From a virus, in the IMG/VR virus record IMGVR_UViG_3300034066_002191: 64,000 nucleotides of DNA; one strand, written 5' to 3'. The notes below the pieces were generated by a model. It saw only the letters and a list, made by a program, of their open reading frames with translations, was not told the origin of the DNA and did no database searches. Below are positions 22,992 to 63,998 of the stretch, one piece after another. Each line of letters opens with the position of its first letter. The first letter of the stretch is position 1. Made by a program: the position numbers and the translations under genes.

Positions 22992-23063
22992 AGCCGAATA
23001 TCGGGATCAAACCGATGACATCCATATTACAAGTATGGCGCTCTATCACTGAGCTAATTCGGC
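22992..23063 (-). tRNA. tRNA-Thr(UGU), no encoded CCA
   Basis: Acceptor GCCGAAT/ATTCGGC; D arm GCTC/GAGC; anticodon arm CCATA-CTTGTAA-TATGG; T arm ATCGG-TTTGATC-CCGAT. Confidence 0.92.
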
Positions 23064-48842: not shown

Positions 48843-48872
48843 TAGCTTAGCTCCTTTACTGTGTGTAAATTT

Positions 48873-48922
48873 GCGTTGCTTCTCCTTAAAGGATACTTCC
48901 GCTGGGCATTCCAGTCAACGAT
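48873..48922 (-). ncRNA. Glutamine-I riboswitch (glnA motif)
   Basis: ATCGTTGA-CTGG/CCAG-CGGAAGTA-TCCT/AGGA-GAAGCAACGC: P1 CGTTG/CAACG, three-way junction, E-loop AGUA/GAA; upstream of DUF4278. Confidence 0.88.
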
Positions 48923-61093: not shown

Positions 61094-61119
61094 AAAAAAA
61101 AGGAACTCCGAAGAGTTCC
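61093..61119 (-). terminator. psbA intrinsic terminator
   Basis: GGAACTC-TTCG-GAGTTCC (cUUCGg loop) followed by T9. Confidence 0.88.
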
Positions 61120-61130
61120 CCTTTATTATA

Positions 61131-63798
61131 TCACCCGATGGTTGGTGCAGTCAAGGCAACAGGAGTGTTGCTAGCAGCAGCAAGATCAAGTGGGAAGTTG
61201 TGAGCATTCCTTGTGTTTTAACCTTTGTCGCCAAAGGGAGCGGACTATATCATCACTCATAAGAGTGTCGGACGCTAGTGGCGTATTACGGATGAAGCGT
61301 CATCCACCGCCTAGTCTCTGAACCTTCCTTACACGCTTGCAAGGCTTGGCTGCTGATTGTCTACGAGAGAGTTCCAGCAATTCATCCGATTTAACGAGCG
61401 CCATGCGTTCACAAAACGCTCGTGCATTACCTCCATTCCTAGTCCTGCTCTTGTCAATACATCAGCCCAAGTGTTAATCACATGACCTTGATTGTCTTGA
61501 ATGGACTGGTTGAAATTAAATCCGTTCAGGTTAAATGCCATAGTACTAACACCAAGGGCAGTAAACCAAATACCAACTACTGGCCAAGCGGCAAGGAAGA
61601 AGTGTAGTGAACGGGAGTTGTTAAAGGACGCATATTGGAAAATAAGTCGTCCGAAGTAACCGTGAGCCAATTATCCAAAAGTTTCCTTAAGGGTTGGACT
61701 ATATCTTCACCTATTAAAGGTGCTGGGCGCTCTTGCCTGTTATTAAGAAGACTGAACTTCTCAGGTAGTCTCTGAACCTTTCCTAGATGTATCTAGGACT
61801 TGGATGCTGATTGCCATATCCATAAAGGACTTAGGTTCCCAGCAGTTCACCCAGTTTAGCGTGACCCGCTCTGTCAAGCCACGATGTTATAAGTCTCTTC
61901 TTCTTGACCGAACTTGTAACCATAATTCTGTGACTCGTTCTCAGTGGTTTCACGAACCAGTGAAGAAGTAACCAGAGAACCGTGCATAGCACTGAACAGA
62001 GAACCACCGAAGACACCAGCAACACCCATCATATGAAAAGGGTGCATAAGAATGTTGTGCTCTGCTTGGAATACAAGCATGTAGTTGAAAGTTCCGCTGA
62101 TACCTAGAGGCATTGCATCACTAAAACTACCTTGACCAAAAGGATAGACCAGGAACACAGCACTCGCAGCAGCAACAGGTGCGCTGTAAGCAACACAGAT
62201 CCAAGGACGCATACCTAGACGGTAGGAGAGTTCCCATTCACGACCCATATAGGCATAGATGCCGATGAGGAAGTGAAATACAACGAGTTGGAAAGGACCA
62301 CCGTTGTAAAGCCATTCATCAAGACTTGCTGCATCCCAAATGTTGTATAGGTGCAGACCAATTGCATTAGAACTTGGTACTACGGCACCACTGATGCCTT
62401 CCATGAAATCCACTCTTCATCTTCATGAGGTACCCAACCTTCTAAAAATGAGGAGACCATAGACCTAAGTGAATAATGGGGAAATCTTGTACTTTTCGCC
62501 CACGCTTTCGCAGTAGGCTTTGGTTTACCAGAAGAAATCCAAATTTCATAAATTTCATCTGCGACCAACCAAGGTTTTATATTTTTACCCTGTTTCCACT
62601 TAGAAACTTTTTTAGCAACTTCGGGATTTTTCATTGGATTACTATCGCCAGATAGTATTGGGAGATTATTAGAGAGAGAAACTAATTTACTTTTCTCCAC
62701 ATTTCTAGTCCAATGATTATCACCAATCGCACCATTCCATTTTTCTGGATTAGTTTTTCTTGGGTGAGTTTTTCCTTTTAAATGTTCCCAATATTGGGGA
62801 TTTTTATGTCTGGCGTGATTTTCGCCAGTTCCCCAACCTTGAGGTTCATTTGATAGATTTAAACAACCATCATTTCCATAGTGCAAAGAGAGCATTTCTC
62901 TTTCAGTTCCTCTAAGATTGGTATCTTCATTAAATATTTCTAGGAATACCCAATCATCAGGATACTTTTTTAGAGAATTATGGAAGTGGTCGTTTCCCTT
63001 AAACTTTCTATGGAATCTTTCTCTTTTTTGAGAGTCATTGCGGTAGAACCCCAATAATAATCACCGTTAGAAAGTCTTAGTGCTAAGTAAGTTATCATGG
63101 AAGTTAGACTATATCTTCATCCTTTATTAATTATATCATAAAGGAGTTGGGCGCTCAAGCCTGTTATTAAGAGGACTGAACCTCTCAGGTAGTCGTTGAA
63201 CCTTTCCAAAGTGTACTTTGGACTTGGCTGCTGATTGGGGTGGTCTTCCCTTTCCAGCAATTCACCCAATTTACTTTTCACGATTACTCGTGAATGACAC
63301 CATCTAGATGTTGTTGCCGTAAAGTAGAGAACCAGCAACTGGTTCACGAATCCCGTCGCATCATCTAACAAACAACCATATCTTTTGACTTAGGTTGCTT
63401 CTGTTGATTAGTCAACAGTAGATGTGTGGACTATATCTTCACCCTTCATAGAAGGAGCTGGGCACTTAAACCTGTTATTAAGAGGACTGAACCTCTCAGG
63501 TAGTCTCTGAACCTTCCTCAAGTGTACTTGAGGCTTGGCTGCTGATTGCCTTTCGGTTTCCAGCAATTCACCCAGTTTCGTCAATACTCTTACGAGTAAG
63601 GGACACCGATTAGTTAATGTCTACGGGAGGTGCTGCAATAAATGCAACAATAAAACAGATAGTTGCCGCAAGAAGGCAAGGAATCATAAGAACTCCGAAC
63701 CAACCAACATACAGCCTATTATCGGTTGAAGTTACCCAGGAACAGAATTGTTCCCAGAGGTTTTCGCCAGAACGGCGTGAAGCGATTGAAGCAGTCAT
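61131..63798 (-). CDS. psbA: Photosystem II D1 protein, five exons
   Basis: Exons 63798-63617, 63358-63308, 62396-61877, 61667-61416 and 61208-61131 total 1083 nt = 360 aa + stop; the joins restore PVDIDG, GNNIISG, NIVAAHG and MHERNAH. Confidence 0.96.
61209..61415 (-). mobile_element. Group I intron psbA-i4 (207 nt, after Arg334 in standard numbering)
   Basis: P1 CGAGCGU/GCGCUCG with U.G; cores AATTGCTGGAA, AATCAGCAG, GTTCAGAGACTA, ATGATATAGTCC; ends in G. Confidence 0.93.
61668..61876 (-). mobile_element. Group I intron psbA-i3 (209 nt, after Ala250)
   Basis: P1 GUGGCU/GGUCAC; P10 GAGC/GCUC; R GTTCAGAGACTA and S AAGATATAGTCC; ends in G. Confidence 0.93.
62380..63098 (-). pseudogene. Intron-encoded GIY-YIG homing endonuclease split by a -1 frameshift (degenerate or recoded)
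   Basis: ATG 63098 gives [25 protein letters not shown], which stops at 62970. The -1 frame from the A6 run (63029-63024) continues RERFH...FHNSLKKYP...EREML...CLNLS plus NUMOD-like repeats to TAG 62380. Confidence 0.8.
62397..63307 (-). mobile_element. Group I intron psbA-i2 (911 nt, within Ile77) carrying the endonuclease gene after the S element
   Basis: P1 ACAU/GUGU; P10 GAUG/CAUC; P, Q, R (GTTCAACGACTA) and S (AAGATATAGTCT) cores; ends in G. Confidence 0.93.
63130..63158 (-). promoter_or_regulatory. Intron-internal sigma70-like promoter for the GIY-YIG gene
   Basis: TTGAGC-N17-TATAAT with extended TG, 31 nt upstream of ATG 63098. Confidence 0.6.
63359..63616 (-). mobile_element. Group I intron psbA-i1 (258 nt, within Ile60)
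   Basis: P1 GACAU/GUGUC; P AATTGCTGGAA, Q AATCAGCAG, R GTTCAGAGACTA, S AAGATATAGTCC; ends in G. Confidence 0.93.
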
Positions 63799-63821: not shown

Positions 63822-63925
63822 GTCCAGGGGGAACTGGATGGTTACAGTATGTCCCACACCACCCTCCAGTGTGGGTATGAGAGACTTTGTTTAACCTCCC
63901 CATAGGTCTCGGTTAGGAAGAGGAA
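63822..63925 (-). ncRNA. Structured psbA 5' leader, PhotoRC-II-like RNA motif
   Basis: CCTCTTCC/GGGGAGG stem whose loop GAGAC can pair with a downstream GTCTC; CCCACAC/GTGTGGG and TCCAG/CTGGA hairpins; position upstream of a phage psbA. Confidence 0.7.
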
Positions 63926-63964
63926 CAACATTAAGAACTTGTTACATTTCTTAACTTGTTGATG

Positions 63965-63998
63965 TATTTATTATAACACTGTCATGATTCCCTGTCAA
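63965..63998 (-). promoter_or_regulatory. Overlapping early and late psbA promoters
   Basis: TTGACA(63998-63993)-N17-TATAAT(63975-63970) overlapping ATAAATA(63971-63965). Confidence 0.85.

Follow-up and report, generated by a model that had tools for sequence, protein, structure and literature searches.

An intact cyanophage psbA gene interrupted by four group I introns of circulating, site-specific lineages

The window analysed here is a 64,000-nucleotide (nt) stretch of viral DNA from the IMG/VR record IMGVR_UViG_3300034066_002191, whose minus strand carries, between positions 61131 and 63798, the auxiliary photosynthesis gene psbA encoding the protein D1. The gene is split into five exons by four group I introns, and its coding potential is intact. 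With good confidence, the locus can be read as a functional psbA gene of a T4-like cyanomyophage in which four selfish, self-splicing introns have accumulated. Each of the four belongs to a lineage tied to its own insertion site. Multi-intron psbA genes are common among phages in public viral metagenomes, and the window is a good example of them rather than a new kind of thing.

The exons were located using the intron-less D1 of phage S-CAM9, which as a tblastn query matched five collinear psbA pieces on the minus strand, and the splice boundaries were placed by the group I rule that the 5' exon ends in U and the intron in G. When joined, the five exons (Table 1) form a reading frame of 1083 nt that translates into 360 amino acids (aa) followed by a stop codon, and this D1 is 89.7% identical to that of S-CAM9 over 358 aa with zero gaps. 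In standard numbering, D61, E65, Y161, D170, E189, H198, H215, H272, H332, E333, H337, D342 and A344 are all kept, and the protein thus retains the ligands for the Mn cluster, TyrZ, P680, the non-haem iron and the QB site as well as the C-terminal processing site. The N-terminus is one residue longer than the standard one, which places the intron sites at nt 179, 230, 750 and 1002 in standard numbering. Since in-frame stop codons occur inside every one of the four introns and the lengths of two are not a multiple of three, the introns must be removed at the RNA level. An earlier, sequence-only reading of this stretch had described an intact psbA gene with four group I introns and had proposed that D1 synthesis needs four splicing steps; both points stand, the latter because of the in-frame stops, and the coordinates and exon lengths it gave are exact to the base.

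The assignment of the four inserts to group I was likewise borne out by the Rfam covariance model RF00028 (Intron_gpI), which aligned each intron to model positions 1-253 and scored introns 1-4 at 67.4, 94.7, 90.1 and 78.8 bits (E-values 6e-16 to 4e-24), all above the gathering cut-off of 50 bits. In intron 2, the match covers the core at 63351-63086 and ends ahead of an 800-nt stretch holding an open reading frame (ORF). In all four introns, the P1 pairing of 4-8 base pairs (bp) closes with a U.G pair, and a P10 pairing of 3-4 bp, formed with the complement of the 3' exon start, is found immediately 5' of the guide strand of P1. The pairings are GACAU/GUGUC (P1) and CGA/UCG (P10) in intron 1, ACAUC/GGUGU and CAUC/GAUG in intron 2, GUGGCU/GGUCAC and GCUC/GAGC in intron 3, and the 8-bp ACGAGCGU/GCGCUCGU together with AUGC/GCAU in intron 4. 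The introns end in G at 63359, 62397, 61668 and 61209, respectively, so the U.G-closed P1 and the terminal G reported for each insert by the earlier reading can be read off directly. In addition, intron 2 contains a long-range P9 helix, in which CUUCCAUGA (63103-63095) pairs with UCAUGGAAG (62406-62398) over a perfect 9 bp, one base short of the terminal G. As this helix brackets the ORF, the ORF is placed in loop L9, and the helix is kept in four relatives, where it differs only by G.U wobble changes.

Comparison with other phage psbA introns provides further support for these structures. The four window introns align with one another and with the psbA intron of phage S-PM2, and all four can be assigned to subgroup IA with a P7.1/P7.2 extension, i.e., to the family of the S-PM2 psbA intron. 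When 34 ORF-less introns representing 12 sites, window introns 1, 3 and 4 among them, were aligned, 19 of the 29 predicted consensus pairs (P3, P4/P5, P6 and P8) showed compensatory changes that preserve the pairing. Furthermore, among 120 phage psbA introns the guide forms a P1 of 5.8 bp on average with its own exon, compared with 3.6 bp with exons from other sites.

Table 1. Exons, introns and associated features of the psbA region (window coordinates; CDS, coding sequence), with the closest introns found at the same site elsewhere
Feature	Coordinates	Strand	Description	Closest same-site introns (core identity)
Sigma-70-like promoter, candidate for psbA	63970-63998	(-)	TTGACA-17-TATAAT with TG; 12/12 consensus match	
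PhotoRC-II RNA motif, psbA 5' leader	63839-63933	(-)	RF01717; 79.2 bits (cut-off 39), E 4e-13	
psbA exon 1	63798-63617	(-)	182 nt; Met1 to second base of Ile61 codon; tblastn with S-CAM9 D1	
Intron 1	63616-63359	(-)	258 nt; ORF-less group I; after CDS nt 182 (standard D1 nt 179)	L154, L211, L222 (98-99%)
psbA exon 2	63358-63308	(-)	51-nt micro-exon; 17 codons including Asp61 and Glu65	
Intron 2	63307-62397	(-)	911 nt; group I with endonuclease gene in L9; after CDS nt 233 (standard nt 230)	L013 (96%)
GIY-YIG homing endonuclease gene, frameshifted	63098-62380	(-)	N-terminal frame 63098-62970; main frame 63054-62380	
psbA exon 3	62396-61877	(-)	520 nt	
Intron 3	61876-61668	(-)	209 nt; ORF-less group I; after CDS nt 753 (standard nt 750), between Ala250 and Ala251	L166, S-SRM01 (94-95%)
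psbA exon 4	61667-61416	(-)	252 nt	
Intron 4	61415-61209	(-)	207 nt; ORF-less group I; after CDS nt 1005 (standard nt 1002), after Arg334	L183, S-SRM01 (98-99%)
psbA exon 5	61208-61131	(-)	78 nt including stop codon	
Intrinsic-terminator-like hairpin and T-run	61097-61124	(-)	Directly after psbA stop; 12-pair stem, T9 tail	
Free-standing F-CphI-type homing endonuclease gene	61060-60620	(-)	Endonuclease VII fold; Pfam PF02945, E 2.8e-26	

The locus is probably transcribed as one unit running from the promoter through the PhotoRC-II leader and the five exons with their four introns to the terminator. Each intron would then fold as a ribozyme of its own, its guide recognising the end of its own 5' exon through the U.G-containing P1 and the 3' exon through P10, and would leave the transcript by the usual two transesterifications initiated by guanosine triphosphate, D1 being made only from the four-times-spliced transcript. 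Some points weigh against so simple a picture. The guanosine-dependent self-splicing of the four introns is predicted from sequence alone, and the psbA promoter is suggestive only, as promoter-like sites are no more numerous in the region than in shuffled sequence. Moreover, the P1 of intron 2 is short (4-5 bp), and introns 1 and 2, which flank the in-frame 51-nt exon 2, have the guide GGUGUC in common. The intron 2 guide can form 5 bp with GACAU, at the end of exon 1, compared with 4 bp for the end of exon 2 itself. With a short P1 and a guide that pairs with the end of exon 1 at least equally well, some mis-splicing that skips exon 2 is possible; such loss of exon 2 from the messenger RNA would keep the frame and delete Asp61 and Glu65. 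Finally, intron 2 may no longer be independently mobile, as its endonuclease gene is frameshifted.

The relationships of the introns were examined in IMG/VR, where two scans with intron patterns and one with the intron 2 junction yielded at least about 95 loci with psbA pieces. When a tree is built from the ribozyme cores, introns of one insertion site fall together whichever genome they come from. Accordingly, the window introns share 94-99% core identity with their closest same-site introns elsewhere but only 54-79% with one another, which rules out a recent duplication within the window gene. Given this low mutual identity, each intron was acquired from a circulating, site-specific lineage. 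The orthologues of intron 2 (L013, L180, L112 and L128) have core identities of 88-96%. At a deeper level, the lineages of sites 182 and 233 are sisters with the common guide GGUGUC, and site 753 holds their next relative, which suggests that introns transposed from site to site long ago.

At least 15 insertion sites recur in psbA among the listed loci, at window CDS nt 182, 233, 279, 320, 411, ~500, 551, 559, ~570, 648, 753, 893, 995, 1005, 1011 and 1014. Sites such as 222, 303 and 719 are spurious and stem from boundary anchoring; these artefacts were excluded or reassigned in the P1 and tree analyses and are still raw entries in the site tallies. Outside the phages, a scan of prokaryotic genomes with the intron motif found no cyanobacterial psbA introns, its matches being gammaproteobacterial transfer RNA (tRNA) introns, in tRNA(CAU), and two tiny, probably mis-binned phage fragments. 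The P7.1/P7.2 motif is not confined to psbA introns: group I introns from Granulosicoccaceae, Woeseiaceae and related metagenome-assembled genomes (MAGs) carry it as well. It was seen in L322 (3860-4160), where the intron lies in the tRNA(CAU) anticodon loop, and in ~60 other gammaproteobacterial MAG contigs (L313-L377).

The sequence-only reading had regarded four introns in a phage psbA gene as rare or new, and the survey of intron number overturns this claim. Among the listed IMG/VR loci, which were selected for introns and are thus biased to intron-bearing genes, 46 psbA genes are complete; 22 of these carry one intron, 10 carry two, nine carry three, four carry four and one carries approximately nine, so that at least two introns are present in 24 of the 46. 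These counts combine exon gaps with matches to the 3' core and are approximate, as nhmmer overcounts introns split by an ORF. The other four-intron genes are those of L112, L168, L382 and L383, with Rfam support for L112, L382 and L383 and four Rfam matches apiece in L382 and L383. The layout of intron 1, the 51-nt exon 2 and intron 2 is repeated in three further contigs (L379, L381 and L382), and L378, truncated after exon 2, probably has it too. The gene with approximately nine introns (L165, 6650-11260; IMGVR_UViG_3300042987_001812) has eight Rfam matches above the cut-off and one ORF-split intron, and micro-exons of a few bases separate two of its intron pairs, near 559/570 and 1005/1011. 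The best 80 psbA matches in IMG/VR to a full D1 query are all intron-less, although this selection favours contiguous matches and gives no intron frequency. In the searchable literature, phage psbA genes are described with one intron (S-PM2, S-RSM88 and S-CBWM1) and phage genes overall with up to three (Twort orf142, Bastillevirinae; PMC10136302, PMC11878797), and no description of a multi-intron phage psbA gene was found there.

Two endonuclease genes accompany the introns. The ORF of intron 2, whose stop codon falls 18 nt into exon 3, lacks one A in an A-run within 63032-63021, where A6 is found and A7 would keep the frame, so that YYWGST, the first GIY-YIG motif, is read in a different frame from the remainder. 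Its relatives have a single continuous ORF of 239 aa, and a -1 ribosomal slip on CTC AAA AAA G would restore the conserved sequence. The frameshift could therefore reflect real inactivation, a homopolymer or assembly error, or programmed slippage. Homologues P0001, P0002 and P0011 carry a precomputed annotation as PF01541, and the intact copy in L180 matches this model with an E-value of 5.6e-4 and 20.6 bits, slightly below the cut-off of 22.6 bits. PHROG homing-endonuclease families match the C-terminal half of the ORF, while no match was obtained with Pfam for the main frame of the window alone or with a PDB sequence search and NCBIfam for the ORF. The members of this family are 239 aa long and have come from metagenomes only, a GIY-YIG domain being present in several of them, and the only relatives from isolated phages are GIY-YIG genes of Salmonella and Yersinia phages that are ~25% identical. 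One metagenomic gene call of 387 aa (P0021) joins D1 (PF00124) to a C-terminal portion of the intron 2 endonuclease; gene callers therefore read across the 3' splice site of intron 2. A promoter-like site (TTGAGC-17-TATAAT with TG; 63130-63158, minus strand) lies in intron 2, with 32 nt between it and the downstream endonuclease ATG, and would fit separate expression of the ORF, even though the overall number of such sites is not above chance.

The second gene is free-standing, lies 70 nt downstream of psbA and encodes a protein 89% identical over 142 aa to F-CphI of S-PM2. Its position relative to psbA is the same as in S-PM2 and S-SRM01. F-CphI of S-PM2 cuts intron-less psbA at the site occupied here by intron 4 (PMC6083498); cutting of the intron-less allele and its block by the intron are known for S-PM2 only (PMC6083498). 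For intron 1, relatives at the same site in L164 and L193 contain a single-motif LAGLIDADG gene in L9, which was confirmed by Pfam for L164.

Taken together, the site-specific lineages would pass between phages by homing and recombination, with each intron following a different route. Intron 2 would have relied on its own GIY-YIG endonuclease, broken here by the 1-nt frameshift, while intron 4 would be paired with the downstream free-standing F-CphI-type endonuclease in so-called collaborative homing. Intron 1, which like intron 3 is ORF-less, represents the endonuclease-less form of the LAGLIDADG-bearing intron and, being only 51 nt from intron 2, could hitchhike when the latter homes.

It could instead be speculated that the introns serve as an adaptive regulatory gate, in which splicing efficiency depends on light or energy state, the supply of D1 is set by four ribozyme steps in series and skipping of exon 2 adds a further layer. 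The ratio of spliced to unspliced S-PM2 psbA RNA is indeed light-dependent, and light stimulates splicing of the four Chlamydomonas psbA introns (PMC5931967). A single guide, GGUGUC, shared by the two introns around an in-frame 51-nt exon would also suit such a device, and exon skipping between similar tandem group I introns has been documented in Twort orf142 and phage SIOphi (PMC10136302, PMC11878797). However, the number and position of introns vary freely among close relatives, from none to approximately nine, with the best 80 psbA matches being intron-less, and intron presence or absence tracks endonuclease genes. This pattern argues for selfish mobility and not for a conserved regulatory device, making the gate quite improbable. 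A broader proposal, in which the introns are more than passengers because condition-dependent splicing, including exon 2 skipping, gates or diversifies D1 and in which, separately, cyanophages act as a shuttle that exchanges psbA introns between green-algal chloroplasts and the gene pools of cyanophages, is unlikely.

The gene might also be decaying, with at least one intron that no longer splices and psbA a pseudogene heading for loss, as could be suspected from the frameshifted endonuclease, the lowest Rfam score in intron 1 (67 bits) and the short P1 of intron 2. Yet the exons are free of frameshifts and stops, D1 is 90% identical to functional phage D1 proteins with every catalytic residue kept, and the four ribozyme cores, all above the Rfam cut-off, are 94-99% identical to copies in other contigs; once an intron is fixed, its endonuclease gene is normally lost, with no effect on splicing. 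Decay is thus very improbable. Equally hard to sustain is a chimeric assembly of co-occurring alleles with fewer introns: the window is apparently an assembly of an uncultured lake phage and intron content is highly polymorphic in nature, but three introns are present in S-SRM01, a cultured phage with a complete sequence, independent contigs repeat the same layout around exon 2 (L379, L381 and L382), and the four-intron genes L112, L168, L382 and L383 exist besides, all but L168 with Rfam support. The reading as a functional gene carrying four mobile introns is therefore preferred.

Regarding the remaining RNA elements, the PhotoRC-II motif of the leader also precedes the psbA genes of S-SRM01 and of IMG/VR loci. 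Elsewhere in the window, a glutamine riboswitch aptamer (RF01739, 45.7 bits) is located at 48870-48922 and a tRNA-Thr(UGU) gene at 22992-23063, both on the minus strand.

Genes of this kind are reported by gene callers and in published genome papers as psbA fragments with stray endonucleases, and a correct exon map restores the complete D1 gene. More broadly, phage psbA emerges as a hot spot in which a single group I intron family is radiating, a pattern for which no description was found in the searchable literature; the family uses at least 15 sites, reaches approximately nine introns per gene and includes at least one lineage shared with green-algal chloroplast psbA. The same insertion site can hold forms with and without an endonuclease gene. 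With these features, phage psbA offers a natural system for studying the life cycle of introns and homing endonucleases, for intron transposition to new sites and for possible exchange between phages and plastids. The single window adds little further, because richer examples are already in public data.

Among the closest known systems are the Synechococcus phages S-PM2 and S-RSM88, whose psbA group I intron goes with the free-standing endonuclease F-CphI in collaborative homing (Millard 2004, Zeng 2009, PMC6083498). As the sequence-only reading had recognised, window intron 4 occupies the site of the S-PM2 intron, after Arg334 (CDS nt 1005); both introns are ~210 nt long and ORF-less, and an orthologue of F-CphI lies directly downstream of psbA. 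The S-PM2 intron has been reported to splice efficiently during infection (PMC5931967). In contrast to the four introns of the window, S-PM2 has one, and the other three window sites have not been described for phages in the searchable papers. Moreover, the core of intron 4 is only 68% identical to that of S-PM2 and represents a separate lineage at the same site, so this F-CphI-associated site holds two distinct intron lineages, one of 207 nt (window and S-SRM01) and one of 212 nt (S-PM2).

The freshwater Synechococcus phage S-SRM01 (MW015081; PMC8557907) is the closest isolate in this region, with 89.6% identity over 1.3 kilobases (kb). It has introns 3 and 4 (94% and 98% core identity, respectively), the PhotoRC-II leader and the F-CphI-type gene in common with the window, whereas it is without introns 1 and 2 and has an HNH-bearing intron of its own after codon 92 (standard nt 276). 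Its psbA (L001, 4130-6532) is a single gene with three group I introns, the first of which follows His92 and holds the HNH gene in L5. In the deposited genome, the locus is annotated with a 'site-specific DNA endonuclease' and two D1 genes, each labelled 'partial', and the authors wrote of two partial psbA genes and supposed that one intron was present (PMC8557907), which bears out the expectation of the earlier reading that automated annotation would fragment such genes.

Green-algal chloroplast psbA genes resemble the window in that many IA-type introns with LAGLIDADG, HNH or GIY-YIG genes reside in one gene, although in a plastid rather than a phage genome. Chlamydomonas reinhardtii psbA has four group I introns, and that of Oedogonium cardiacum has ten, at sites 179, 276, 384, 408, 525, 548, 570, 645, 754 and 898, with a LAGLIDADG gene in L9 of the intron at 179 and an HNH gene in L5 of that at 276 (PMC2442088), while Ulva has psbA-179 (LAGLIDADG) and psbA-750 (PMC10151680). 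The first intron of S-SRM01 agrees with Oedogonium psbA.2 (site 276) in site, endonuclease type and loop. Going by published numbers, 179 and 750 are intron sites in both the window and chloroplasts, which assumes the standard D1 N-terminus and was checked by sequence for 179 only; no counterpart of window sites 230 and 1002 was found among the published chloroplast sites. On the same numerical basis, phage and chloroplast psbA also have sites 276, 548 and 645 in common. For site 179, a 107-kb contig (L386, 2593-4384; NCBI GCA_006365115.1) holds a chloroplast-type psbA (N-terminus MTAILERRES...) with a LAGLIDADG-bearing group I intron whose protein is a homologue of the phage LAGLIDADG protein. 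This intron follows GACAT, has the guide ATCGGTGTCCCT and matches the intron hidden Markov model with an E-value of 1.4e-27, and its alignment with window intron 1 spans P1-P5 and P7-P9. Window intron 1 is without the LAGLIDADG ORF that both L386 and its phage relative L164 possess. Judged by the same site, the same guide and an alignable core, the lineage of intron 1 is one common to phages and green-algal plastids.

Several related IA introns within one phage gene have previously been described in orf142 of Staphylococcus phage Twort and in the polymerase and terminase genes of Bastillevirinae (PMC10136302, PMC11878797), where a short exon also separates two similar introns, as exon 2 does in the window. 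Exon skipping is documented for Twort orf142, and skipping of window exon 2 is conceivable by analogy only. While Twort orf142 has three introns and the Bastillevirinae genes have up to three, the window psbA has four, and while those introns interrupt structural or DNA-metabolism genes, the introns of the window reside in an auxiliary photosynthesis gene.

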